Source: Minisyncoccota bacterium (GTDB lineage Bacteria > Patescibacteriota > Minisyncoccia > Phycocordibacterales > UBA2100). From it: 64,000 bases of DNA. Below, piece by piece: positions 31,520 through 63,856 of this stretch (within the stretch, counting starts at the first letter, position 1; each line of letters starts with the position of its first letter). Position numbers and translations under genes: made by a program. The notes beneath the pieces are model-generated. The model did not search any database. It was not told where the DNA came from and worked only from the letters and a program-made list of their open reading frames with translations. The DNA is taken from positions 1,279 to 65,278 of the forward strand of contig DATDWX010000006.1 of assembly GCA_036517335.1 (NCBI GenBank), given 5' to 3'.

Positions 31520-32089
31520 ATGAGGGCCGCCGCGATGATAGAATACGGCGAAGCCATGGATGCAATGCCGATGTCGGTCATTCTCGTTATTGCGGTTGCG
31601 ACCGTCTTTTTGTCGGTTGCGGTGGGGCTCACCTATGGGGTGCGGAGCAAGTTCGTGCGCACGCGCTTCATCATGACGGGCTTTTTTATCTACATCGTCT
31701 TTACGCTGACCGCATCATTCTGGCAATTCGCCCTTGCCACGCTCCCATACACCATCCCCGCGGCGCTGCTGGGGGTAGCGATCGGTTACTTCGTGGGCGT
31801 GCGAGCCGCGAGTGAAAAGCTGAAGATGCAAGGGGTGCAATACTATATGGAGCACTTTGCGCACGTGCACATACACGAGGTCAAAGCGCTCAATTGGTGG
31901 AGCCTCATTAATTATTATTCGGTCATGGGCGTGCTCGTGCTGATCAATTTAGTGGGGTTGAGTAACGTCATTTTCGACGGGTCGCGGCTCTGGGCCATCA
32001 TCACCAGTACGGTGGGGGCGCTCTTGATAGGGTCTATCGTCCCGTACCTCATACACTTGTGGAGTATCAGAGCTACAGGAATGCATTAA
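31520..32089 (+). CDS. Hypothetical membrane protein (5-6 TM)
   Basis: 189-aa hydrophobic ORF. Confidence 0.4.
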   Translation: MRAAAMIEYGEAMDAMPMSVILVIAVATVFLSVAVGLTYGVRSKFVRTRFIMTGFFIYIVFTLTASFWQFALATLPYTIPAALLGVAIGYFVGVRAASEKLKMQGVQYYMEHFAHVHIHEVKALNWWSLINYYSVMGVLVLINLVGLSNVIFDGSRLWAIITSTVGALLIGSIVPYLIHLWSIRATGMH

Positions 32090-32921
32090 ATCCTACAAGG
32101 GAAAGAGCAAAGGATACGAGCACTATCACAACAAGCGAGAAGAGAAACATCCGCCGCGCCCAGCGCCCGCTGCTTGCCGTCCAAAACCCAAGTATGGCGT
32201 ACAGAAGCCACAGGAGCGAAACGCCGAGGATGACAAAGCCCGCGCGCGGTGCGACAGGAATGACGAGCATAGAGAAGGCGGCGGCGAATGCTCCGATAAA
32301 GAGTACAATCTCTACTTTCGTGCGGACGAGTCCTTTTTGGAGCGGCAGTACCGGAATGCCTGCTACGGCGTATTCCTTTGCTCGATAGATCGAGATGGCA
32401 TAAAAGTGCGCCATCTGCCAGAAGACAAGGATGGCGTAGAGGAGGAGTGCAGAAGTATCGAGGGCACCCGAAACAGCTGTGTAGCCCACGACCGGTGGCA
32501 CAGCGCCCGCGAGCGCTCCCGCATAGGTGAAATAAACAGTGCGACGTTTTGCAAGCGTGTAAACGATAAGGTACATGCAGTACCCAAAGAGGAGCACACC
32601 GAGCGCCACCAGATTCGTCGCAAAGAAAAGCACCAGCGTACCGGCCAGCCCAAGTATCGAGCCGAAAATCGCCGCATGTCTTACCGAAATACGGCCTGAA
32701 GGTATTTCGCGCTCCTTCGTTCTTTCCATTCGCGCATCTATATCACGGTCAAGAATGTTGTTGATGACACACGCGCTCGCAGTGACCAGTGCAAAGCCAA
32801 TGAGCGTGTAGAACATAAGCAGCCAGTCGATCGAATCACGCGATGCAAAGAGAAATCCGGCGGCTGCGGTGATCGTATTGCCGTAGATGATGCCAGGCTT
32901 TGTGAGATTGTAGTAGTGCAT
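32073..32921 (-). CDS. cyoE: Protoheme IX farnesyltransferase (heme O synthase)
   Basis: UbiA-family blocks (NxxxDxxIDxxMxRT: NNILDRDIDARMERT) and 8-9 TM segments. Start set at MHYYNLTKPGI; the longer upstream ORF is rejected. Confidence 0.85.
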   Translation of the reverse strand: MHYYNLTKPGIIYGNTITAAAGFLFASRDSIDWLLMFYTLIGFALVTASACVINNILDRDIDARMERTKEREIPSGRISVRHAAIFGSILGLAGTLVLFFATNLVALGVLLFGYCMYLIVYTLAKRRTVYFTYAGALAGAVPPVVGYTAVSGALDTSALLLYAILVFWQMAHFYAISIYRAKEYAVAGIPVLPLQKGLVRTKVEIVLFIGAFAAAFSMLVIPVAPRAGFVILGVSLLWLLYAILGFWTASSGRWARRMFLFSLVVIVLVSFALSLVGFNAFL

Positions 32922-32938
32922 GCGAAGTGTTTGCGCCG

Positions 32939-33342
32939 TTAGTCGGCCTGCGTGGATGGAGAAATGACACCGCCGATATACATTTCCTCCACTGAAGTGT
33001 GCGTGAGGTTGCTCATGATCCACAGCGATCCCCCCACTACGATCACGACGATGAGGACGGCGAAGGCAAGCACCGTCGCATTCCAACCCGACTGTGAGCC
33101 CTTACCAAGATGGAGGAAGAAGATGAGCTGCGCCATGAGCTGCGCTATTGCGAGGACTAAAATGACGAGAATCAGCATCCCGTGCGGGAGGATCTCGTGG
33201 TGGGTAACGAGGTCCCACTGCACGAGGCCAAAGGCTAATCCAGTACACAGTATAGAAAATAAGAAACCAAAGATGTATGAGTGGATCGATCCATACGCAG
33301 ACTCGGCTCGCGCGTGAGGGGTGTTGTGATAATCGGTGCGCA
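32939..33342 (-). CDS. cyoD: Cytochrome o ubiquinol oxidase subunit IV
   Basis: 134-aa 3-TM protein (MRTDYHNTPHA...SYIFGFLFSILCTGLAFGLV...) downstream of cyoC. The longer listed ORF overlaps cyoC and is rejected. Confidence 0.7.
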
Positions 33343-33348
33343 TAGAAC

Positions 33349-33915
33349 TCACAAAAGTGCGAATAAATAGACGAACGTAAAAATAAAGATCCACACGATA
33401 TCGAGAAAGTGCCAGAACAAAGTCAAACACATGAGCTTGCTTCTGGTACCAGGAGTGAGCCCTTTGTAGAGGAGGTGAAAGAGGAGCACTAGCATCCAAA
33501 GTGAACCAAGAAAGATGTGAAGCCCATGCGTCCCCACGAGCGTGAAGAATGACGAGAGGAACGCGCTCTGCTGCCACCCGTGACCTTCGCGCACGAACTG
33601 CGCGAATTCGCTCACCTCCATTGCGAGAAAGGCACACCCGAGCGCGAATGTCGCAAGCAGGAGAATGATGACTTCTTTTTTCTTCTTGTGATGTGCAGCG
33701 AGCATCGCGAGCCCGATCGTGGCGCTCGACACGAGCAGAATGATGGTCTCGGCGAGCACAAAGGGGAGGCTGAAGAGTTCTGCCCCGGAAGGCCCGCCAA
33801 AGGTTTCCCCACGCAAGACCGCATAGGTAGCAAACAACGCCGCGAATAAGACACAGTCGCTCATCAGGTACACCCAAAACCCGAATGGCACCCTGTCGTT
33901 CGTGTGTTCGTTCAT
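33349..33915 (-). CDS. cyoC: Cytochrome o ubiquinol oxidase subunit III
   Basis: 188 aa with 5 TM segments and the conserved subunit III blocks ([37 protein letters not shown]). Confidence 0.9.
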
Positions 33916-35870
33916 ACGAGTTTACGCAGTCCGTGTTCGATCCGCGCTATTTCTGCCGCGGGCACCGTGTACTCGATATCCTCCCCGAAAGAGCGCGCGA
34001 CGACACATATGAAGATCGCAAGAAGCGCCAGCACTACGAGCCACCATATGTGCCAGACCATAGCAAAGCCGAACGCAAAACTACACGCTGCGATAATGAA
34101 GCCCATTCCCGTATTTTTCGGCATCACAATGTCTTCGTATTGTGTGCTCGCATGATTGAGGCCCGCTTGCTTCATTATCCAGAAGGCGTCGCGTCCCGCT
34201 ATGCGCGGAATGATAGCGAAATTGTAAAAAGGCACCGGCGAAGGCGTGGACCACTCAAGCGTACGACCATTCCACGAATCTCTGGGCGCAACATTGTGGT
34301 GGCGCTGGATAATACTCACGATGAGTTGCAGCGCTTGGAAGGCGAGCGCGAGCGCGATGATGCACGCGCCGATCGCAGCCACAACGAGTAGCGAATGCCA
34401 TTCGGTGGACGTGCCTATGGAAGAGAGCCGTCGCGTCATGCCCATGATGCCGAGAATATAGAGCGGGATAAATGCCGTGCAGAAGCCAACAAGCCACAAC
34501 CAAAAGGCCCATTTACCAAGCCGCTCGTTGAGGGTGAAGCCAAAGATCTTCGGGAACCAATACGTGAGGCCGGCAAAAAAACCAAAGAGCACACCGCCGA
34601 TGATCATGTTGTGGAAGTGAGCGACGAGAAAGAGGCTGTTATGAAATTGAAAATCCACACCCGGCACCGACATAAGAACGCCGCTCATTCCACCCAGCAT
34701 GAAGGTCGTGATGAATCCCAAGAACCACAGCATCGGCGTAGGAAATACGATGCGGCCGCGGAACATCGTAAAGAGCCAATTGAATACCTTGACGCCAGTG
34801 GGGATAGCGATCGCCATTGTGGCGATGCCGAAAAAAGCATTTACATCCGCCCCCGCGCCCATCGTGAAGAAGTGATGCAACCACACGAGGAATGACATCA
34901 CAACGATAAGCAAGGTCGCGATCACCATCGAGACGTACCCGAACAACTTTTTTTGCGCAAACACAGGCACGATCTCCGAAAAGATCCCGAAGGCAGGTAG
35001 AATGAGTATATAGACTTCCGGATGTCCCCACGCCCAAATGAGATTCACGTACATCATCGCGTTTCCCCCAAGGTCGGTTGTAAAAAAGTGCATGCCCATC
35101 GTGCGGTCCAGTGAGAGGAGCGCCAAGGTCGCGGTAAGGATGGGGAATGCAAAAATGACGAGCGCCATCGAGCCAAGAGATGTCCATACAAAGATCGGCA
35201 TACGCATCAGCTTCATACCAGGGGCGCGCATCTTGATGATGGTCACGAGGAAGTTGATACCAGAGAGTAGGGTGCCGACGCCGGCTATCTGCAAGGCCCA
35301 GATATAATAATCAACGCCGACACCAGGACTGTATTGCAATTCCGAGAGCGGCGGATAGCCGAGCCAGCCCGTAGCCGCAAATTGTCCTACGACGAGCGAG
35401 CAGTTGATGAGCATGGCACCAGCCGCCGTGAGCCAGAAGCTCATTGAGTTGAGAAAGGGAAAGGCGACGTCGCGCGCACCGATCTGCAGCGGTACCACAA
35501 GATTGAGAAGCCCAAACATAAGCGGCATGGCGACGAAAAAGATCATAATGACGCCGTGCGCGGTAAATATCTGCGAGAAATGCTCGCCGTTCAAAAAACC
35601 GACGTTGTCGCCTACCGCAACTGCTTGCTGGCCGCGCAGCATGAGCGCATCAATGAATCCGCGCGCGACCATTGCGAGCGACAGCAGAATATACATGATG
35701 CCTATTCTTTTTGCGTCCACCGTGGTGATCCACTCATCCCAAAGCCATCGCCAGCGTTTGAAATAAAAGAGTGCAATGATAACAGCGGATGCGCTTCCCA
35801 ATACGACCAGTTGCCCGATCGTCTCTACAAGTCCATGCTTCAATGCTTCGAGTGTTAATTTTCCGAACAT
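33912..35870 (-). CDS. cyoB: Cytochrome o ubiquinol oxidase subunit I (heme-copper oxidase)
   Basis: 652 aa. Heme-copper oxidase subunit I blocks ([20 protein letters not shown]-like HHFFTMG, His ligands). Confidence 0.95.
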
Positions 35871-35874
35871 AGAT

Positions 35875-36825
35875 CTATTCCTCCCGAGGCGCCTGCCCGT
35901 ACTGAAGTACGTTCGGGCGGGGATCCGCCTCCCTAGGAATTCCGTGCATGGGCATCCCGCGGGAGGGCTGCATAAATTTCATCAAGATCGTAGTATAAAG
36001 GTTGTCTTCCACCGTTCCATAAAAGCTCGGCGGATCTGCAGTGCTTGGATCTGCAAGCGAAGAGTATTCGTGAAGCGTGAGCGTACCTGAAGAAGTTTGC
36101 ACACCACGCACCCAGGCATCGAATGCATCCTCTGAAGTGGCGATGACCTTGAATTTCATCTGCGCAAATCCGTCGCCACTATAATTGGCCGAGCCGCCCG
36201 CGTACGTGCCCGCTTTGCTTGCAACGAGGTGGAGCTTGGTAGACATGCCAGCCATCGCATATATTTGTCCCCCAAGCTGCGGGATCCAGAATGAATTCAT
36301 CGGTGCGTCGGAGGTGATATGAAATTCGACGGGTCGGTCAATGGGCAGCGCTAAGAAATTGACCGTCGCGATGTGCTGCTCCGGATAGATAAACAACCAC
36401 TTCCACTGCAAAGCGACCACTTGAACAGTGAGTGGATGCCCGAGGACAGCGAGCTTTTTGTATGGATCGAGCTCGTGTGTACTCGTCCACGTCAGGGCGC
36501 CGAGCACCAGCACGATCTCGAAGGGAATTGCCCACCACACGAGCTCTGCCATAGCGCCGTGCTCTTCGTTCGGTGTGTACCGTGCGCCTTTGTTGCCCGC
36601 TCGATACCACCAAGCGAAAAAAAACGTAAGCGCGAGTATTGGAATGACGACTATGAGTGTAAGGAGTGTCGCCGTGATCAAAAGTGAGCGCTCTTGTGCA
36701 GCAATGAGGCCCGCCGGCTCGAGTACCGCGAATGTGTGACCTTGAAGCAGCAGTACTACAGCCAGGATCGCTCCAGCGCCAAGCGTAAAAATAATCGCAA
36801 ATATAATAGAGGGCTTCATTGGCAA
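35875..36825 (-). CDS. cyoA: Cytochrome o ubiquinol oxidase subunit II (no CuA site, quinol-oxidase type)
   Basis: 316 aa with two N-terminal TM segments and a cupredoxin-like periplasmic domain ([26 protein letters not shown]). Confidence 0.9.
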
Positions 36826-41067: not shown

Positions 41068-42111
41068 TCACTTTCTTACCCAGTATCTGTTTTTCAGAGT
41101 TTTGCTCAACCGATGCGCGTCGGCGTGTTTCAGTGCGCCCAAATAGGATTGGAGAACCGCGTTCATTTCAGCGTCTTCGATGGCTCCGTTCCGGTAAAAA
41201 TAATAAGCATGTCTGATCTTGCGAAACATCCGCTGTTTGCTTTTCTCGCGCATCAGCCGATGATGCGGGAACTGAACGTACCCGAGAAAGTCTACTCCCT
41301 TGTGGTACTTAATTATTTCCACTTTATCCGGATGCAACCCAAGCTTGAGTTTTTCTTGCAGGAACTGTTCGATGGGGGCGAGCAGTTTTTCAAGTCCCGC
41401 TTTGTCGCTGGAAACGAGAATAAAATCGTCGGTGTAGCGGACGTAATGCTTTATCTTCAATTCTTGTTTAACAAACTGGTCAAACTCGTTCATGTACACG
41501 TTGGCAAAGAGTTGCGAAGTCAGATTGCCGATGGGCACGCCTCGCGCGTGAAAGAGGTCAGGGCGGCCGGACTCAAAGCTGTCAACGATTTCTTTCAGCA
41601 ACTGCATTACTTCCGGATCCTTGATCCGCCGCGCCAGTATTGCAAGCAATATCTCGTGATCGATGCTGTCAAAAAACTTCCGGACATCGCACTTCAAGGC
41701 ATAACACTCTCGTGTGCCGTTGCGGCTCACAGCGCGAAGCATCTGCGCCAGTCGCCCCACGCCCCTGTGCGTGCCCTTGCCAATGCGGCACGAAAAGGAG
41801 TCGGCAATGAAGCCTGGTTCGAAAATCGGATTGAGCATTTTGAAAATCGCGTGATGCAGCACACGGTCGCGCACCGTAGCTTTGTGAATATGTCTGCGTT
41901 TCGGATCAGTGATGTAGAAGCCGGTATACGGCCCATGCTTGTATATTTTGTTTCTAAGGTCTCGGTGCAACTGAAAAATATACTGCTCCACCTTTTGCTC
42001 GAAATTCATTACGTCTGCCTTGTTTCGCTTCTCGCTTTTAAATATGTCCCATGCCACGAACAGATGTTCGGCCGAGGTCATTCTCTCGAATATTCGCTTG
42101 TACGTTTTCAT
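41068..42111 (-). CDS. Diversity-generating retroelement (DGR) reverse transcriptase
   Basis: 347 aa. RT motifs include the catalytic YTDD (RYTDDFILV) and the DGR-specific IGNxxSQ motif (GVPIGNLTSQLFANVYMNEF) in place of the QGxxxSP of group II intron and retron RTs. Confidence 0.85.
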   Translation of the reverse strand: MKTYKRIFERMTSAEHLFVAWDIFKSEKRNKADVMNFEQKVEQYIFQLHRDLRNKIYKHGPYTGFYITDPKRRHIHKATVRDRVLHHAIFKMLNPIFEPGFIADSFSCRIGKGTHRGVGRLAQMLRAVSRNGTRECYALKCDVRKFFDSIDHEILLAILARRIKDPEVMQLLKEIVDSFESGRPDLFHARGVPIGNLTSQLFANVYMNEFDQFVKQELKIKHYVRYTDDFILVSSDKAGLEKLLAPIEQFLQEKLKLGLHPDKVEIIKYHKGVDFLGYVQFPHHRLMREKSKQRMFRKIRHAYYFYRNGAIEDAEMNAVLQSYLGALKHADAHRLSKTLKNRYWVRK

Positions 42112-43169: not shown

Positions 43170-44099
43170 ATGGCTCCGATGGTAACATTGGCTCCGTCTG
43201 TTACCCACAGCGATGACAAGGGCCGCAAGTTCATGGACATCGTCGGGACGGCATACGACAAGGCAAAGCTCCCCGAAGATGAAGCGCAAAACGTCAACGA
43301 CGCACCCGGTCTTGCCGAGGTGGTCGCCGGCTTCATCGCCGACAATCGGTCTTCCAACAAGTACAAGAAGGAGGAGGTCAAGCCGCGCTGGCCCTATCCG
43401 GCCAGCTACAAGCGCGAAGCGATCGAGCGGCAGATCGACATCCTGCGCTCGGCGGCGAACTTCCCGTTCATCGATCCGGATCCGGCGATCAAGTACTACC
43501 GCGAGGTGTACGGGTCGCTCCGGCAGCCGGAATGGGTGGAGGGGCCGTTCATCATCATGCCGACCTCGACCTTGGCCAAGCACTTCTTCCCCGAAATCAC
43601 CGACGTGGCCGATCAGCATTGCCGCGCCGTCAACATCGGGATCGAGAAGCTCGGCGCGTCGCGTCCGTTCCACAACTGGCGTGCAGGCGAAATCACGACG
43701 GATCGTTTCCGGCGGAAAGCCCGCTACGTCCCGATGTACGACCGGCTCTATGCGACACAGCCGAACAGCGACCTGATCGTCGTGGGCGGCCAGTACGGCA
43801 AGTTCCACGGTGGCCAGCCGATGCGTCGTGCGCTGGAGCGGATGCAAGGCCAAGTGAGCGAGCTTCCCGCCGGTGCGCTCGAGGGTGTCGTCATGGCACT
43901 CGCGAACCCGACCCGGTACTCCAAGTGGGAAGAGCTGGACACCGACCTTCCGGCGGACGAATTCCGTCCGGGCGACGAGGCCGGGTTCTCGGTCTCGCCG
44001 TACCTCAGCTTCGGCGGCGACAGGCTGAGGTTCGGCATGCGCGGCGTCGGCGGGCCGCTTGAGCGCTATGGCTCCGTGTCGGTGTCCGTCCCGCAGTGA
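43170..44099 (+). CDS. DGR target (variable) protein. The N-terminal ~265 aa are of unknown function, and the C-terminal VR is presumably C-type-lectin/FGE-like. No obvious signal peptide.
   Basis: 309-aa ORF whose last ~43 codons form the variable repeat. The C-terminus ...RPGDEAGFSVSPYLSFGGDRLRFGMRGVGGPLERYGSVSVSVPQ matches the TR-encoded ...RPDDEAEFSNSPYLNFNDDKLKFDMNDVDKPNENYGSVSVSVP. Confidence 0.8.
   Translation: MAPMVTLAPSVTHSDDKGRKFMDIVGTAYDKAKLPEDEAQNVNDAPGLAEVVAGFIADNRSSNKYKKEEVKPRWPYPASYKREAIERQIDILRSAANFPFIDPDPAIKYYREVYGSLRQPEWVEGPFIIMPTSTLAKHFFPEITDVADQHCRAVNIGIEKLGASRPFHNWRAGEITTDRFRRKARYVPMYDRLYATQPNSDLIVVGGQYGKFHGGQPMRRALERMQGQVSELPAGALEGVVMALANPTRYSKWEELDTDLPADEFRPGDEAGFSVSPYLSFGGDRLRFGMRGVGGPLERYGSVSVSVPQ
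43964..44093 (+). repeat. DGR variable repeat (VR) at the 3-prime end of the target gene
   Basis: See the TR entry: 130-bp match with only adenine-specific differences and a conserved 27-bp 3-prime end (the presumed IMH region, tatggctccgtgtcggtgtccgtcccg). Confidence 0.85.
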
Positions 44100-44196: not shown

Positions 44197-44229
44197 AAAA
44201 CCCGCAAGGCGACGCCTTGCGGGTTTTTT
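44197..44229 (+). terminator. Rho-independent terminator downstream of the DGR target gene
   Basis: aaaacccgcaaggc-gac-gccttgcgggtttttt: a perfect 12-bp stem followed by a T-run. Confidence 0.7.
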
Positions 44230-44264
44230 ACGAAACGCCAAGTAGCTATGCTAAACTTGCGCTC

Positions 44265-45008
44265 ATGAACGAGGGGATCAAGGTTATTTTGGCGCCAGAG
44301 CAGTTGGGGACCTTTTTTGGGATTCCCATTACGAATACTTTGCTGATGAGCTGGGTGGTCGTGGCACTCCTACTCGTCGTTGCCGTTCTCGTAGGTAAGC
44401 GCTTGCAGCTCACGCCGTCTCGCCCCCAGGTGCTCTTCGAGTGGCTCGTCGAATTCGTGTACGACTATATTGCCGAGATTTTGGAGAGCCGGGAGCTTGC
44501 GCGCAAATTCTTTCCATATCTCTGTACCGTCTTCCTGTTTATTTTCGTCTCAAATCTCATTGAATTCACGCCCGGCATTGGCTCCATCGGATTGTTTGCG
44601 CATGACGGGGAATTTTTTCCGCTCTTGCGCAGTGTAAACACCGACCTAAACGTCACTTTGATGCTCGCCATCCTTTCCTTCCTCGTCATCGAGATCACGG
44701 GCATCCTTGTCATCGGCGCTGCAAAATACGCCGGCAAATTTCTCAATTTCCGCCACGGCTTTGTTGGATTTTTCGTCGGTATTTTCGAATTTCTCTCCGA
44801 ACTCTCGCGCATCGTTTCGTTTTCGTTCCGTCTGTTTGGCAATGTATTCGCTGGCGAAGTGCTGATACTCGTCGTCATTTTCTTCCTGCCGGTCGTCGCG
44901 CCCGTGCCGGTCATGATGTTTGAGCTCTTTGTGGGCTTCGTGCAGGCCGCTATCTTCGCGCTTCTGACGCTCTTTTTCATCAAAATAGCCATCATGGACC
45001 CGCATTGA
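44265..45008 (+). CDS. atpB: F-type ATP synthase subunit a
   Basis: 247 aa from MNEGIKVILAPEQLG, with 5-6 TM segments and the conserved Arg region (LSRIVSFSFRLFGNVFAGEVL). Confidence 0.9.
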   Translation: MNEGIKVILAPEQLGTFFGIPITNTLLMSWVVVALLLVVAVLVGKRLQLTPSRPQVLFEWLVEFVYDYIAEILESRELARKFFPYLCTVFLFIFVSNLIEFTPGIGSIGLFAHDGEFFPLLRSVNTDLNVTLMLAILSFLVIEITGILVIGAAKYAGKFLNFRHGFVGFFVGIFEFLSELSRIVSFSFRLFGNVFAGEVLILVVIFFLPVVAPVPVMMFELFVGFVQAAIFALLTLFFIKIAIMDPH

Positions 45009-45011
45009 TCG

Positions 45012-45311
45012 TTGAATATAAGAGTCATGATGCGTTTTGAATCTCCATACGGCCACATTGTGCTCACCGACGAACGCAAGCAACATATCCTTGCGTATCA
45101 TCCCGACATGGCCGACTGTTTTCGGCACTTCGCATTGACGCTTGCAAAGCCGGAGCGCGAGATCCGCTCGGTGCATGATCCATTGGCCATCATCTGCTAC
45201 AAATTTCTTCCACATCGTAAGAAATACCTTGCAATCGTGGTCAAAACGGGCGTACACCCGTTCGTATTAACCGCGTATTTGGTAAAAAGGCTGAGGGGCG
45301 CTACACTTTGA
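45012..45311 (+). CDS. DUF4258-family protein (toxin component of the DUF4258/DUF2283 type II TA pair)
   Basis: 99 aa (...HIVLTDERKQHILAYHP...KYLAIVVKTGVHPFVLTAYLVKRL), a pattern typical of DUF4258. The stop overlaps the start of the next ORF (ATGA). Confidence 0.55.
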   Translation: MNIRVMMRFESPYGHIVLTDERKQHILAYHPDMADCFRHFALTLAKPEREIRSVHDPLAIICYKFLPHRKKYLAIVVKTGVHPFVLTAYLVKRLRGATL

Positions 45312-45535
45312 ACATGCTTAGATACTTCTATGACAAAGAGGCCGATGTGTTTTATTTCTCGCAGGGCGTTCCGAGCGCATCGGATGAGACAATCGAAGCA
45401 GGAGATGACGTGCTTCTGCGCATTGCTCCGCGCTCAAAGAAAGTTCGCGGCTTCACGCTCCTCAACGCCTCACGCCGTTTGCGCGGCACCTCGCGCTCGG
45501 CGGTGCTTCCATTCATACTCGCCCCTACAAGATGA
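45308..45535 (+). CDS. DUF2283-family protein (antitoxin partner of DUF4258)
   Basis: 75 aa beginning MLRYFYDKEADVFYFS, which matches the DUF2283 hallmark YDxEADxLYI. Confidence 0.6.
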   Translation: MNMLRYFYDKEADVFYFSQGVPSASDETIEAGDDVLLRIAPRSKKVRGFTLLNASRRLRGTSRSAVLPFILAPTR

Positions 45536-45584
45536 TCGGCTTCGTGCCGACCAAAATCGCGTTCGACGCGACACCCTCCTCACA

Positions 45585-45643
45585 CTCTTCTTCATCAAAA
45601 TCGCCATCATGGACCCGCATGGGGAGACGCATTGAGCAAATGC
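45585..45643 (+). repeat. Duplicated copy of the atpB 3-prime end (displaced gene end at the cassette junction)
   Basis: ctcttcttcatcaaaatcgccatcatggacccgcat repeats atpB 44968..45005 with one mismatch in a 31-bp core. In frame it reads LLTLFFIKIAIMDPHGETH-stop. Confidence 0.8.
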
Positions 45644-47400: not shown

Positions 47401-48987
47401 ATGGCCCAATCAAGCATCGTCGAGAAGATCATCAAAGAGATAGAGGGGCACGTGGGTGCACAGCTGTCCGAGCACGTAGGCAAGGTCACGTCAGTGGGCG
47501 ATGGTGTGGTCGCTATAGATGGCCTTGCGCGCGCAGTGATGAGCGAAGTCGTGGAGTTTGAAGAAGCTAAGGGAAAAAAGTTGGCTGATGCGATCGATTC
47601 GCCAGCAAGCGGAAAAGGGAAACTGTACGGACTCGTCCTCAATCTCGAAGAAGATAGCGTGCGTGCCACGATCCTCGGCGATACGTCGCGGGTACACGAA
47701 GGTATGACGGTGAAATCCACCGGCAACGTGCTGATGGTACCATCGGGAGAAGAACTCTTGGGCCGCGTTGTCAATGCGCTTGGTGAGCCGCTCGATGGCA
47801 AAGGTCCATTCAAAAACGCTGCGATGATGCCGATCGAGCGCCAAGCTGCCGGGGTGATAGATCGCAAATCGGTCTCTGTGCCGCTGGCAACTGGCATCGT
47901 CGCGATAGACGCGATGATCCCCATCGGCCGCGGCCAGCGCGAGCTCATCATTGGTGATCGCGCGACTGGCAAGACCACCGTCGCGATAGATACCATCATC
48001 AACCAGCGGTATGAGCCCGAAGAGAGTCGTCCGATTTGTATCTACGTAGCGATAGGTCAGAAGGAAAGTAAGACAGCGCGCATTGTGGAGCAGCTGCGGC
48101 AGGAAGGCGCACTCGGCTATACCATCATCGTGGATGCGCCCGCCTCCGCGCCCGCCGCGCTCCAATTCCTTGCCCCGTTCGCTGGGGTGGCGATCGGCGA
48201 GTATTTTATGGATGCTGGCCGCGATGTGCTGATCATCTACGACGACCTCTCCAAGCAAGCGGTCGCATACCGAGAACTGAGCCTTCTCTTGCGTCGTCCG
48301 CCGGGCCGCGAGGCGTACCCGGGCGATATTTTCTACTTACACTCGCGCCTCCTGGAGCGCGCGTGCCGCTTGAGCGAAGAAAAAGGCGGTGGCTCCATCA
48401 CCGCGCTCCCCATCATCGAGACGCAAGAAGGCGATGTGTCCGGCTACATTCCGACCAATGTCATCTCCATCACCGACGGGCAGATCTTCCTCACGAGCAA
48501 CCTCTTCAACAAAGGTGTGCGACCTGCCATCGATGTGGGTATTTCCGTTTCGCGCGTCGGCTCGTCGGCGCAGACCAAGGCGATGAAATCGGTGGCAGGT
48601 ACTCTCAAACTCACACTCGCACAGTTCCGCGACCTGGAGGCATTTATGCAATTTGCACAGGATCTTGACAAGGTGACCGCTGATCAGATCGCGACCGGTC
48701 AGCGTATGGTAGAGCTCCTGAAGCAGAAAAATGGCGCACCAATCCCGATGGAAAAGCAAGTGGTCATGCTTTTTGCTGCGATGAGCAAACTTTTTGCCGA
48801 AACACCGATCGCGCGCGTGCAGGAAGCAGCGCGCGGCTTCGCCGAATTCATCGACACCGAACACGCTGGTGAACTAAAGGAAATCAATGCTACGGGCGTA
48901 CTTTCTGATGATCTCAAGAAAACCCTCACACATGCGATGGAAGAATTCCGACTTGGACACAAAGAATTCTTCGCGGAAGTCAAGTAG
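47401..48987 (+). CDS. atpA: F-type ATP synthase subunit alpha
   Basis: 528 aa with Walker [10 protein letters not shown] and canonical alpha-subunit blocks. Confidence 0.97.
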
Positions 48988-48990
48988 GGT

Positions 48991-49908
48991 ATGGCCAGCT
49001 TGAAGGAGATCAAGTTAAAGATCCAATCGTACAAAAAGACGGGAACGGTCACACATGCGATGGAGGCGGTGTCGGCGGTAAAAATGCGCAAAGGCCAAGA
49101 GCGCGCACTCTCGAGCCGCGCGTATGCCGCCGCAGCGCTCTCGGTATTGGAGCGGCTCGCTGGTACAGTCGACGTGTCGCGGCATCCGCTTATGCAAACG
49201 CGCACAGGCAAGGCGTGTTATATCGTTGTGACGAGCGATAAGGGCCTTGCGGGTTCTCTCAACAGCGGCGTCATCCGCCAAGTCGAACAAGCCATATCAA
49301 GGACGGTCCGTAAACAGAAAGATGTGGTGATGATCGCGCTCGGACGCCGCGGCGGCGATTATTTTGGGAGCCGCGGATATGATGTGCGCGCCAAGCACGA
49401 GAACGTGAGCGACAGTGTTTCGGAAGAACAAGTACGTGCCATTACCGACGAAGTGCTGAAATGGCACCAGACGGGGGGAATCACCGATGTATTTGTGGTA
49501 TACCAAAACTTCATCTCCACATTTGAACAACAACCAACGGTTCGTAAGATAGTTCCGATACTACCCGAAAAGATGAAAGAAATTGTTGCTGGTATCCGCC
49601 CCGCACGCGGCAGGTATGCACCTGTCCAAGGGGAGTCCTTGGACAAACCGGCGGCGTATACTATTGAGCCGGATGCAGATACGGTACTTGCAGAGCTTTT
49701 GCCGCGTCTCCTCAACATCGCCGTCTTCCACGCACTCCTCGAGAGTAAAGCTTCCGAACACAGCGCGCGTATGGTAGCGATGAAAAGCGCGACCGACAAG
49801 GCCAAAGAAATGGCCGGCAATCTCACCCGCACGTTCAACAAAGTCCGCCAAGCCGCGATCACCCGCGAAGTCTCCGAGATCACCAGCGGCATCGAAGCGA
49901 TGCGGTGA
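48991..49908 (+). CDS. atpG: F-type ATP synthase subunit gamma
   Basis: 305 aa. N-terminal KEIKLKIQSYKKT and C-terminal ...LTRTFNKVRQAAITREVSEITSGIEAMR, as in gamma subunits. Confidence 0.9.
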   Translation: MASLKEIKLKIQSYKKTGTVTHAMEAVSAVKMRKGQERALSSRAYAAAALSVLERLAGTVDVSRHPLMQTRTGKACYIVVTSDKGLAGSLNSGVIRQVEQAISRTVRKQKDVVMIALGRRGGDYFGSRGYDVRAKHENVSDSVSEEQVRAITDEVLKWHQTGGITDVFVVYQNFISTFEQQPTVRKIVPILPEKMKEIVAGIRPARGRYAPVQGESLDKPAAYTIEPDADTVLAELLPRLLNIAVFHALLESKASEHSARMVAMKSATDKAKEMAGNLTRTFNKVRQAAITREVSEITSGIEAMR

Positions 49909-49921
49909 AATCCAAAGGATC

Positions 49922-50371
49922 ATGAATGTTTTCGATGAGTGGAACGCGCAGAAAAAGCGAGCGGACGAAACAGAAATCATTTTGGGATTCAAAGAACGCG
50001 AGTTGTGGTTCATAAAAATGGGCAAGAATGTCGGGTTTGAGCAAGATGGCAAGGGCGATGAATTTCTTCGCCCCGTCCTTATATTCAAAAAATTCAATAC
50101 GCGCGTCTTCTGGGGAATACCGCTCACGAGGACTGAAAAGAAAGGACCCTTCTATTATCAACTTGCCAACATAGGTCAGCGACGCAATACCGCAATCTTG
50201 TCGCAGATCCGACTCTTTGATGCCAAGCGCCTCAAATATAAAATCGGTACATCCACAGCGGCGGATTTTGAGGATCTCAAAAAGTCATTCCAAGCGCTCG
50301 TTGAGTCGGCGGGGAAGCCCCGGAATGCTAAACCCCCGCACAAGACGGGGGAGGCCCGAAGGCGTTTGTAG
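49922..50371 (+). CDS. MazF/PemK-family toxin-like protein (endoribonuclease fold) with no antitoxin ORF in the cassette
   Basis: ELWFIKMGKNVGFEQDGKGDEFLRPVLIFKKFNTRVFWGIPLTRTEK...TAILSQIRLFDAKRLKYKIG parallels the conserved MazF/Kid blocks (DxxGxExxxxRPxVV, PxTS, CDQIRTxDKxRL). The segment is AT-richer than the flanking atp genes. Confidence 0.6.
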   Translation: MNVFDEWNAQKKRADETEIILGFKERELWFIKMGKNVGFEQDGKGDEFLRPVLIFKKFNTRVFWGIPLTRTEKKGPFYYQLANIGQRRNTAILSQIRLFDAKRLKYKIGTSTAADFEDLKKSFQALVESAGKPRNAKPPHKTGEARRRL

Positions 50372-50417
50372 GTCCATGATAACGGAGTACAATGAAAAGT
50401 CAATGAACACTTATACA

Positions 50418-50477
50418 CAAGCCGCGATCACCCGCGAAGTCTCCGAGATCACAAGCGGCATCGAAGCGATGCGTTGA
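50418..50477 (+). repeat. Duplicated copy of the atpG 3-prime end (58/60 identical to 49849..49908)
   Basis: caagccgcgatcacccgcgaagtctccgagatcacaagcggcatcgaagcgatgcgttga. In frame it encodes QAAITREVSEITSGIEAMR-stop, identical to the atpG C-terminus. Confidence 0.85.
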
Positions 50478-50706
50478 ACTGTTGTATACTTCACGCAGTC
50501 TGTGAAGGGAGATGCTGGTGATAAAGCAAATTCTCGCGGAGATCAAATCTCCAAATGCCTCAGCAATCAGACCGATCGGCCCCGGCGAAGTGTTATTCGG
50601 GCTCTTCGTTGCCGTCGCGATGCTCCTTGCCATCTTGGCGGCAGCCGGGAAATTATAGGGCCTTTTGGCGCAGTGGGGGTGGCTTAGCCAACCTTCACTT
50701 TTGCTA

Positions 50707-63040: not shown

Positions 63041-63063
63041 CTGTCCAAGGGTTCCCCTTGGAC
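63041..63063. repeat. REP-like palindrome (tgtccaagggttccccttggaca)
   Basis: 23-bp near-perfect palindrome 24 bp upstream of the RAYT start. It shares its sequence with three other copies in the window. Confidence 0.8.
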
Positions 63064-63086
63064 AAAAAACAGGATACGATTAGGCA

Positions 63087-63752
63087 ATGGAGAGGGACTT
63101 CGTGTTTCAAGAGGAGTGCATCTATCACATATACAATCGCGGCGTTGAGAAACGTACAGTTTTCAACGACGACAACGATAAACTCCGATTCCAAAGAATG
63201 CTCTACCTCGCCAACGGCGATAAACCAATCGTCTTCAAACGTGTCCAAGGGGAACCCTTGGACAAGGATCGGGGCACGGCGAGCACGGCTATTCTTGCAT
63301 ACTCGCTCATGTCCAATCATTTTCATATCGTCGCCAAGGAGGTACATACTGGAGGCATCAGCAAGTTTATGGGAAAGCTCTCGACGTCGTATTCCATGTA
63401 CTTCAACATAAAGAATGATCGGAGCGGGCCTCTATTTTGCAGGCCCTTTCGCTCAAAACCTGTCGGTAGCGATGATTACTTGCGCTGGCTTATGTCGTAT
63501 GTGCATTTAAATCCTCTTGACCTTTTTCAGCCCGGCTGGAAGGAAAAGGGAATAGGCGACACATCTGAGGCAAAGAAATTCTTGGCCTCGTACCCATTCT
63601 CAAGTTATCCCGATTACTTTGGAAATAGGCTTGAAAGCAAAATCATAAGCAGGGATGCGCTTCCCTTTCACGTAAATGCTCTCGAAAGCGTGGATGAAAT
63701 GCTGAAAGACTTCAAAGCTCGCCCGGAGTTACCCACAATTGAGGTCTGGTAA
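63087..63752 (+). mobile_element. IS200/IS605-family Y1 (HUH) tyrosine transposase-like protein, REP-associated (RAYT-like)
   Basis: 221 aa. HUH motif SNHFHIVAKE, catalytic Tyr region YVHLNPL, and an N-terminal IYHIYNRGVEKRTVF block typical of IS200-like TnpA. Confidence 0.75.
63242..63264. repeat. REP-like palindrome in inverse orientation (tgtccaaggggaacccttggaca), located inside the RAYT coding sequence
   Basis: Same 23-mer as the flanking REPs. It encodes RVQGEPLDK within an insertion relative to typical IS200 TnpA proteins. Confidence 0.8.
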
Positions 63753-63782
63753 CGCCCCCAACTTTGTTTGCCCTGTCCAAGG

Positions 63783-63805
63783 GTTCCCCTTGGACAGGAT
63801 TCGGT
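63783..63805. repeat. REP-like palindrome (same orientation as 63041)
   Basis: tgtccaagggttccccttggaca, 31 bp downstream of the RAYT stop. Confidence 0.8.
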
Positions 63806-63833
63806 CCGGACTAGGTTTCGAGTTTGTCCAAGG

Positions 63834-63856
63834 GGAACCCTTGGACAAACGGAAGG
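63834..63856. repeat. REP-like palindrome (inverse orientation); with 63783 it forms a BIME-like inverted pair
   Basis: tgtccaaggggaacccttggaca, 28 bp from the previous copy. Confidence 0.8.

Follow-up and report, generated by a model that had tools for sequence, protein, structure and literature searches.

The window, by which is meant the whole 64-kb stretch of contig DATDWX010000006.1 (a Minisyncoccota bacterium) that was analysed, carries genes of an F-type ATP synthase operon, and directly behind atpG, the last atp gene at this locus, lies a short insert with a gene for a MazF/PemK-like toxin. The insert (49910–50417) is read here, with moderate confidence, as a compact toxin–antitoxin (TA) cassette: a promoterless toxin gene of the MazF fold together with a convergent gene for an RNA antitoxin, imported by recombination anchored in the atpG end. 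An initial annotation, made from the letters of the DNA, had described an orphan toxin gene in an AT-richer segment of about 0.5 kb, inserted after atpG and bounded by two copies of the atpG 3' end.

The cassette and its borders

The plus-strand features on which the argument rests are the following.

48991–49908, plus strand: atpG, F1 gamma subunit (TIGR01146, 267 bits, above the cut-off), the host gene with the duplicated 3' end
49849–49909, plus strand: repeat copy 1, the last 19 atpG codons with the stop codon and 1 nt, the functionally used copy (repeat search and translation)
49914–49919, plus strand: AAAGGA, 2 nt ahead of the toxin ATG, possibly a ribosome-binding site, its role read from the sequence
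49922–50371, plus strand: MazF/PemK-fold toxin gene, 149 aa (PF02452, PHROG 9567, AlphaFold2 with Foldseek, conserved R50, P51 and T69)
50418–50478, plus strand: repeat copy 2, a displaced atpG tail with intact coding sequence, forming the right border of the cassette and starting 14 nt past the –35 box of the promoter listed below

The cassette form of the insertion and its duplicated borders stand as first described, with some refinement. The two copies are 61 nt long rather than 60, are identical at 59 of 61 positions (97%) and are spaced 569 nt apart. Copy 2 indeed still codes, as it reads QAAITREVSEITSGIEAMR-stop, and neither of its two differences from copy 1 alters an amino acid. Between the repeats, the 508 bp of the insert have a GC content of 0.474, compared with 0.556 for atpG and 0.541 for the whole window. 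A promoter scan showed no promoter-like site on the plus strand between atpG and the toxin open reading frame (ORF); the toxin gene probably lacks a promoter of its own and would be read from transcripts of the atp operon.

Is the arrangement real? Metagenome assemblers can be misled by short repeats, and the repeat might then be an artefact of assembly or local duplication. The structure recurs, however, across numerous independent assemblies and samples. At least nine independent assemblies have this layout, and the identical toxin, gene order, flanks and 61-nt repeat are present on contigs of several independent ENA and JGI samples. Diverged versions of the atpG-tail layout are found in two further species (L010 and L026; loci used for comparison are given by such numbers). 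As the identical arrangement recurs in several independent assemblies, the structure is taken as real, and the chance of an artefact is practically negligible.

The toxin

The 149-aa ORF is a bona fide protein of the MazF/PemK fold as far as profiles and a structural model can tell, and a predicted endoribonuclease. This is what the initial annotation had supposed, and the profile searches and fold prediction that it suggested agree. The protein scores 30.8 bits against PF02452 (PemK_toxin), where the cut-off is 23.1, and matches PHROG 9567, ‘MazF-like growth inhibitor’, with E 7e-21; the family profile matches the MazF chains of Bacillus subtilis, Bacillus anthracis and Staphylococcus aureus with E about 4e-5. 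The toxin has no match in NCBIfam, and a PADLOC scan for defence systems gave no hit. An AlphaFold2 model based on 120 homologues reaches a mean predicted local distance difference test score of 80 and a predicted template modelling (TM) score of 0.71. In a Foldseek search of the PDB with this model, the top 50 matches are all MazF, with target-normalised TM scores of 0.69–0.78 and a probability of 1.0, and the predicted fold is the SH3-like barrel of the MazF/CcdB type.

Across alignments of 29 and of 120 family members, residues R50 and P51 do not vary and T69 is conserved to at least 90%. In the profile-to-PDB alignment these positions correspond to R25-P26 and T48 of B. subtilis MazF, of which R25 and T48 are the catalytic residues. 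The protein consists of a family-specific N-terminal helix (residues 1–25), the MazF core (26–127) and a tail (128–149). The helix, of about 25 residues, is conserved, with W7 invariant and F4 and K11 nearly so, whereas classical MazF proteins lack it. The tail is present only in the closest subfamily (P0001–P0008).

A predicted convergent RNA gene at the toxin 3' end

The 3' ends of the toxin homologues show strong nucleotide conservation exactly where the proteins become unalignable. Does this region carry a second gene? The antisense RNA that the initial annotation had suggested looking for proves to be the key point: a conserved RNA gene, convergent with the toxin gene, is predicted on the minus strand. 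Its parts in the window are listed below.

50376–50403, minus strand: predicted sigma70-type promoter, with –35 box TTGACT (50403–50398), 16-nt spacer and –10 box TATCAT (50381–50376), 10 of 12 matches in the promoter scan
50279–50369, minus strand: predicted antisense RNA of about 91 nt, candidate RNA antitoxin, from covariance model and covariation, with inferred ends
from about 50369, minus strand: putative 5' end of the RNA, which starts 5'-ACAAACGCC
50353–50363 (plus-strand coordinates), minus strand: UUCG-capped hairpin of the RNA, predicted structure
50333–50351, minus strand: GC hairpin of the RNA, predicted structure
50322–50327 with 50286–50291, minus strand: outer stem of the RNA, followed by a U-run (50278–50285)

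The window RNA is complementary to the last 31 or so codons of the toxin. In nearly every locus the minus strand shows the same order: a –35 box TTGAC(T/A), a spacer of about 17 nt and a –10 box (e.g. TATACT) that is often preceded by TG. At 6–7 nt past the –10 box there follows a short hairpin, UACAAA(U/C)GGC-UUCG-GCC. A second hairpin in the family has a variable sequence and a GNRA or UUCG cap. The third element is a long hairpin with a U-run, which extends over the last ten or so toxin codons and the stop and would in effect constitute a bidirectional terminator.

Compensatory base changes argue for a structured RNA. RNAalifold predicts 20 pairs from 35 loci, 15 of them with compensatory changes. 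Among 84 covariance-model hits, 96.3% of cells are paired compared with 72% in shuffles, and there are 322 double-change cells compared with 81, values reached by none of 500 shuffles; slid controls collapse. As the 84-hit alignment was fitted to the covariance model, these pairing statistics are somewhat favoured. The strand is indicated by 55 G·U wobbles on the minus strand as against only six A·C pairs, which would be the wobbles of the plus strand, and the loops take the stable UUCG or GNRA form solely in the minus-strand reading. In 42 of 63 loci the minus strand has a sigma70 match of at least 9/12 at a fixed distance, 3–4 nt, from the start of the model, 21 of them with the TG extension; the controls gave 5/63 on the plus strand and 6.7% in shuffles. 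In about 68 of the 87 loci the covariance model (R1) has a minus-strand match located at the 3' end of the toxin gene. Within the window it has a single significant full-length match, 50269–50372 on the minus strand (33.1 bits, E 2e-7), the next best having E 0.76. No match to Rfam 15, including its pemK motif, was found at E ≤ 1 in this region of the window or at the element in eight representative loci. The comparison across loci shows a conserved predicted RNA structure and promoter on the minus strand.

Several points weigh against such an RNA gene. The RNA, its ends and its function are inferred. Taken alone, the window RNA folds no better than shuffles (z –0.33), and the case rests on the cross-locus comparison. 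In the subfamily of the window the canonical terminator hairpin is degenerate and the toxin ORF extends across the RNA gene. The long hairpin has one arm in coding sequence, and substitution patterns may be biased by this. At the distant homologues in Campylobacter, Helicobacter and Nitratiruptor R1 has no significant match and analogous features are visible by eye only; prophage CJIE4, for example, has on the minus strand a terminator that covers the stop codon of the toxin and, upstream of this terminator, a TGATATAAT box.

The run of the ORF through the RNA gene offers an explanation for the unusual end of the protein. In this subfamily the toxin has lost its usual stop codon, and translation continues across both 5' hairpins of the antisense-RNA gene, which accounts for the extra tail of residues 128–149 and for its odd conservation pattern.

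RNA elements that do not adjoin a detectable MazF-like gene were also seen, in L045 (5655–5744, 44 bits, covariance model) and in L101 (2280–2370, nhmmer). Each may be a remnant, or else the partner of a toxin that is more distant.

How the toxin might be neutralized

The initial annotation saw no antitoxin-sized ORF in the cassette. The ORF list agrees, and no second conserved ORF was found inside the cassette or at homologous loci. Because the left border lies 12 nt from the toxin ATG, no promoter-like site is found upstream and no second ORF is conserved, a protein antitoxin is considered absent. Small candidates were examined and rejected. A mini-ORF of 24 codons (ATG at 50403, in frame with copy 2) has its ATG within the –35 region (AGTCAATGAA), and L147 and L179 have no equivalent start before copy 2. 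A peptide translated from the small RNA was rejected on account of its would-be start: at the AUG of ACAAAUGGC, the window and about half of the loci have ACG. Antisense ORFs are represented by open stretches in the cassette, but their length and position are unconserved.

The term ‘orphan’ no longer seems apt for this toxin, given that about 68 of 87 homologous loci have a convergent gene for a small RNA, equipped with a promoter. The unit looks instead like a two-gene module of toxin and RNA. The following working is proposed from sequence. The toxin would be transcribed by read-through from the atp operon, at the rate of the host operon, while a structured RNA of about 90 nt, made from its own strong promoter on the opposite strand, would serve as antitoxin. 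Its role as antitoxin is suggested by the layout, which is that of 3'-overlapping type I pairs. Most likely the RNA would pair with the 3' end of the toxin mRNA in a type I-like manner and lower mRNA stability or translation. The invariant 5' part with UACAAA and hairpin may also, or instead, bind the RNase directly, in a type III-like manner.

Could the RNA act on the protein alone? On such a type III-like reading it would bind and block the MazF-fold protein, with UACAAA as a pseudo-substrate, and would not pair with the mRNA. The part of the RNA outside the overlap with the toxin mRNA begins with UACAAA and is the most conserved in sequence, and in most members this 5' part does lie outside. 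It contains ACA/UACA, the kind of motif that characterized MazF enzymes cut, and the fold of ToxN is Kid/MazF-like. Type III toxins such as ToxN are endoribonucleases that direct RNA binding neutralizes (PMC5772629). The RNA described here is nonetheless convergent and single-copy, whereas type III antitoxins form an upstream, same-strand tandem array, and obligatory overlap through a shared terminator is a hallmark of 3'-overlapping type I pairs. Direct contact between RNA and RNase is a serious alternative or addition to pairing; as the sole mode of action we think it somewhat improbable.

Or is the toxin solitary after all? The hairpins might do no more than terminate transcription in both directions, and the promoter might be incidental. 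In that case the RNase would be held in check by its N-terminal helix or by an unlinked factor, or it might be a non-toxic RNase of narrow specificity, for example against phages. The conserved extension of about 25 aa with invariant W7, missing in classical MazF, would suit this explanation, as would the unremarkable fold energy of the window RNA. Family members are morons in a C. jejuni prophage, and the PHROG match is to a ‘MazF-like growth inhibitor’. Neutralization of a solitary MazF by an unlinked protein is also documented (PMC4803016). A plain terminator, however, needs no two extra hairpins with minus-strand-specific UUCG/GNRA loops. Nor does it account for an invariant UACAAAYGGC 5' segment and a near-consensus promoter at a fixed distance, which are kept across hundreds of diverged loci and in each unit of tandem arrays. 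A solitary toxin is judged unlikely, and the two-gene module, with an RNA that would pair with the toxin message, remains the preferred reading.

Duplicated gene ends at other loci

The cassette behind atpG is not the only one of its kind in the window. The initial annotation had pointed to an independent insertion of the same architecture at atpB, and this is borne out by separate repeats and a different cargo.

44961–45620, plus strand: atpB sister case, with tail repeats 44961–45005 and 45576–45620, 89% identical
45012–45311 and 45308–45535, plus strand: cargo between the atpB tail repeats, a 99-aa ORF and a DUF2283 ORF

All five codon differences between the atpB copies are synonymous, and copy 2 ends ...MDPHGETH-stop as compared with ...MDPH-stop. 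The 99-aa ORF has no match in Pfam, NCBIfam, PADLOC, PHROG or the PDB.

Other genomes offer further cases. The dprA tail is duplicated around a pair consisting of a 55-aa ORF and a PIN gene in L010 and L012, and repeat-flanked TA pairs are also found in L067 and L044. Among 80 loci that encode atpG relatives there are three more atpG-tail duplications, and in the MazF family about six of 80 species-level loci have repeats of host sequence, 32–92 nt long. Details are as follows.

L147: atpG-tail repeat of 54 nt, cargo MntA-HepT
L186: atpG-tail repeat of 45 nt, cargo MntA-HepT
L179: atpG-tail repeat of 76 nt, cargo a 63-aa ORF and PIN
L057: repeat of the 3' end of radC
L027 and L102: repeat of the 5' start of the downstream gene
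L036: repeat of a piece of pheS near its 5' end
L042 and L098: repeat of intergenic or terminator sequence

Different TA cargo (PIN, MntA-HepT, DUF2283) thus recurs in equivalent tail slots at atpG, atpB and dprA. The ancestral state in the clade is atpG followed by atpD after about 42 nt. In relatives (L113–L192) atpD follows either at that distance or after 0.4–1.8 kb of inserted RdgB-like, NUDIX or TA-pair genes. The atpG–atpD junction is an insertion hotspot, and the operon of the window (atpB 44217–45008, atpE, atpF, atpH, atpA 47401–48987, atpG 48991–49908) is broken exactly there. Neither atpD nor atpC follows atpG or is present elsewhere in the window, where tblastn for atpD also gave no match. 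The closest relatives of the window (L114 and L117) have atpG followed by a MazG-like ORF and dprA, with no repeat.

Origin of the repeat and arrival of the cassette

How did the second gene end come to lie behind the cassette? The initial annotation treated the repeat as a simple insertion scar. The flanking duplication is certainly there, but a scar does not fit, as the copies differ almost only synonymously here and in seven analogous cases. Over the eight repeat pairs, 39 of 40 differing codons are synonymous and one is non-synonymous. An untranslated, drifting copy would not give synonymous-only differences, and the repeat is therefore not a neutral target-site duplication. Copy 2 would derive from a functional gene end, either the displaced tail of the resident gene or a donor/resident recombinant, and not from a drifting duplicate.

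The radC loci are instructive. L059 has a radC–toxin unit without a repeat, and L057 has the same unit followed by a remnant radC tail with a different C-terminus (...KNQRVCF-stop in the remnant vs ...KEEGVL-stop). Identity between the two loci is about 70% upstream, 80–87% in the 3' part of radC and 91–96% in the cassette. Between the window and L010, nucleotide identity is 83% in the cassette and 69% in atpG upstream of the repeat. At the end of the L036 cassette there is a copy, diverged in sequence, of the leader of the neighbouring gene. The cassette has no terminal inverted repeats and no shared end motifs, and no recombinase was found within about 5 kb of any of the loci. Synonymous-only differences, differing C-termini, a rise of identity toward the cassette and the absence of inverted repeats and of a nearby recombinase make homology-anchored recombination, which would import the cassette together with a donor gene end, the best fit to the data.

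The pathway that we infer from these comparisons is as follows. Incoming DNA would consist of a donor atpG end and the cassette, and one crossover would be homologous, within the conserved atpG end. The other end would be an illegitimate join about 60 nt upstream of the resident stop codon. An equivalent route would be the Campbell-style integration of a circle made of tail plus cassette. Either route would leave the resident tail behind as copy 2. Once formed, such tail slots could be reused, homogenized and passed between related genomes, the two tails serving as homology arms. Copy 1 and copy 2 are more alike than either is to the orthologous copies in other species, and this similarity, together with the common starting point of the repeat described next, suggests slot reuse and homogenization.

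Some findings sit less well with this pathway. An exact-pattern scan of JGI metagenomes did not yield an empty site of the same population, and no donor was found. The codon at which the repeat begins is shared by the window, L010, L026 and L147, the last of which has different cargo; random illegitimate joining does not explain this, and it implies either spread and reuse of one slot or a site preference. For L036, where the repeat measures 92 nt and is about 99% identical, a fresh duplication would be compatible as well.

Might a transposase or integrase acting in trans have made the 61-bp repeat? It would then be a target-site duplication, such as the long and variable ones of IS1634-like elements, or a pair of attachment (att) sites left by the tyrosine recombinase of an element that has decayed to its TA core. 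Direct repeats do flank the insert, integrative elements often target and restore gene 3' ends, and some repeats are 98–100% identical (L036, L098, L147). The repeat begins at the same codon, with different cargo, in the window and L147, and a Y1 transposase and a reverse transcriptase are encoded elsewhere in the window. The absence of terminal inverted repeats, of common end motifs and of a recombinase within 5 kb at any locus speaks against such an origin, as does a repeat length that varies from 45 to 76 nt at the same target. Neutral decay cannot give 39 synonymous differences to one non-synonymous. Nor would this origin lead one to expect a displaced tail with a different C-terminal extension, as in L057 and at atpB, or the diverged leader copy at the cassette end in L036. 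We regard this origin as quite unlikely and retain recombination anchored in the gene end. A variable repeat/template repeat pair of a diversity-generating retroelement was also considered and rejected; the differences are not adenine-specific, atpG is an implausible target, and nothing connects the reverse transcriptase gene, 8 kb away, with the cassette.

Spread and genomic settings of the toxin family

The toxin family comprises 325 clusters at 50% identity with E ≤ 1e-30, or 1870 with E ≤ 1e-10, and its members are found in Patescibacteria and Campylobacterota. These include homologues in the Campylobacter jejuni prophage CJIE4 and in plasmids of Helicobacter suis (5.8 kb) and Nitratiruptor. 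In CJIE4-2 (L194, 1480–2074) the gene lies between the phage terminase and portal genes, and in the H. suis plasmid (L195, 1489–1990) it directly follows the relaxase gene. No antitoxin is annotated beside the homologues in the CJIE4 or H. suis plasmid records; hairpin, promoter and terminator features on the opposite strand downstream of the toxin can be seen by eye in L194 and L195.

Toxin genes are co-directional and lie inside or at the end of essential operons. They follow atpG in the window, L010 and L026, precede it in L110 and L175, lie between ftsI and murE in L020 and, in L107 and L111, are followed by a mur ligase gene.

Tandem arrays of two or three diverged toxin paralogues were observed in L075 (1810–3263), L036 (3219–4381), L044 (3389–4387) and L064. 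Both toxin copies have their own covariance-model match in L036 and L044, where the arrays look like cassette arrays; L064 has one match and L075 none. Fusions were seen as well. In L027 (3956–4375) a duplicate of the downstream gene's first 10 codons is joined in frame to the toxin, and other family members form the C-terminus of far longer predicted proteins, of up to 461 aa. Such in-frame fusions fit promoterless insertion into host transcription units.

Other elements in the window

Between copy 2 and dprA lies a 48-aa ORF (50512–50658, plus strand) with a hydrophobic C-terminal half, which is called in all assemblies and has no significant family match. A palindrome, TGTCCAAGGGnnnCCCTTGGACA, is present in four copies around an IS200-like/repetitive extragenic palindrome (REP)-associated tyrosine transposase gene (63087–63752; region 63042–63849). 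It recurs with one mismatch inside the atpG coding sequence (49623–49645), where 0.01 chance matches are expected, and looks like a REP-like element in frame within an essential gene.

The reverse transcriptase gene (41068–42111, minus strand; RVT_1, E 2.6e-26) is situated about 2 kb upstream of atpB. Its best NCBIfam match is to the reverse transcriptase/maturase of group II introns, below the cut-off, with weaker matches to Drt and retron reverse transcriptases. Beside it is a 309-aa ORF (43170–44099) with a GC content of up to 0.69 and no family match. A cytochrome o ubiquinol oxidase cluster (32073–36825, minus strand) is also present, with CyoB (33912–35870; TIGR02843, 1048 bits, above the cut-off), a COX2-like subunit II (35875–36825), COX4_pro (32939–33877) and a UbiA-family protein similar to heme O synthase (32073–33086). 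A respiratory oxidase cluster is unusual for bacteria of the candidate phyla radiation, which mostly lack respiratory chains.

Significance

Among annotated TA genes a large fraction are solo toxins, and how cells tolerate them is a long-standing question. An overlooked RNA partner, if it exists, would be a concrete answer for a whole MazF clade. We tentatively suggest, as a possibility that is well short of probable, that the module represents an unrecognized and widespread TA class. In such a class a MazF-fold RNase would be controlled by a convergent small RNA that both pairs with the mRNA 3' end and presents UACAAA to the enzyme, and the cassettes would spread by way of the ends of essential genes as reusable ‘tail slots’, comparable to an integron without an integrase. 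A MazF-fold toxin would then be counted among the TA types under RNA control, and types I and III would be less sharply separated. Tail slots would show how addictive cassettes colonize essential operons (atp, dcw) in genomes that have hardly any intergenic space and are poor in classical mobile elements. Genome-wide searches can use as a signature a duplicated gene end whose differences are all synonymous. The architecture is also seen in elements of cultivable Campylobacter and Helicobacter and is thus directly testable.

Comparison with known systems

With the type II systems MazEF and PemIK the module has in common the fold, the Pfam family, the catalytic Arg and Thr and the form of a small mobile cassette of the addictive type. 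It differs in that there is no mazE/pemI-type gene, no antitoxin ORF upstream and no toxin promoter, and in that an N-terminal helix and a convergent RNA gene are added. Lacking the protein antitoxin that defines type II MazEF systems, the module is not one of them. The solitary MazF-mx of Myxococcus xanthus likewise has no adjacent mazE and is reportedly neutralized by an unlinked transcription factor, MrpC (PMC4803016); it is a single domesticated gene, whereas here the toxin belongs to a widespread mobile cassette with a linked RNA.

In its mobility the cassette recalls Campbell-type insertion–duplication, homology-facilitated illegitimate recombination, islands at gene 3' ends and integron cassettes, with which it shares a duplicated piece of the target at the flanks of the insert, a gene left intact, compact promoterless units of one or two genes that often carry TA cargo, and reuse of one site by different cargo. 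Unlike these, the present cassettes have no integrase, attC or inverted repeats; their repeats, 45–92 nt of host coding sequence, are imperfect and variable, and the inserts measure 0.5–0.7 kb. Integrase-borne islands and integrons are marked by a linked recombinase and by attC or an identical att core; here no recombinase was found within about 5 kb, and the repeats are imperfect host coding sequence. Transposons, miniature inverted-repeat transposable elements and mobile insertion cassettes are recognized by terminal inverted repeats and a fixed short duplication; the cassettes have neither, and their repeats extend over 32–92 nt.

What is known of toxins of this fold and RNA? It has been remarked in general that solo toxins might have RNA antitoxins (PMC2701414), and an antisense RNA that stimulates E. 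coli mazEF has been described (PMC8749433). Searches of open-access papers turned up no account of an RNA antitoxin linked to a PemK/MazF family, and none of TA cassettes that lie between duplicated gene ends, and the make-up of two genes, a MazF-fold toxin and a convergent RNA, appears to be previously undescribed.

Type III systems (ToxIN, CptIN, TenpIN) share with the module an endoribonuclease toxin and an RNA partner. Their antitoxins are upstream tandem repeats on the same strand that are processed by the toxin, whereas here there is one convergent RNA with its own promoter. No tandem repeat array of the type III kind was found at the locus, where the predicted RNA gene is single and lies downstream of the toxin.

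Convergent 3'-overlapping type I pairs include txpA/RatA and bsrG/SR4 of B. subtilis (review: PMC6562991). Like these, the module has a small and presumably strongly expressed antisense RNA over the toxin message, convergence and a shared bidirectional terminator, here predicted from sequence. Classical type I toxins are hydrophobic peptides of <60 aa, and the toxin here is a soluble MazF-fold protein of 127–150 aa, so that the small hydrophobic peptide of the type is missing. SymE/SymR offers a precedent of a protein toxin of normal size under an antisense RNA (PMC1891008), although SymR overlaps the 5' end of its target and here the overlap is at the toxin 3' end. In contrast to type I RNAs, the RNA has a conserved structured 5' domain outside the overlap. 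A cis-encoded antisense RNA gene over the toxin mRNA is nevertheless what the computational evidence indicates, and the module would work most like a type I pair.

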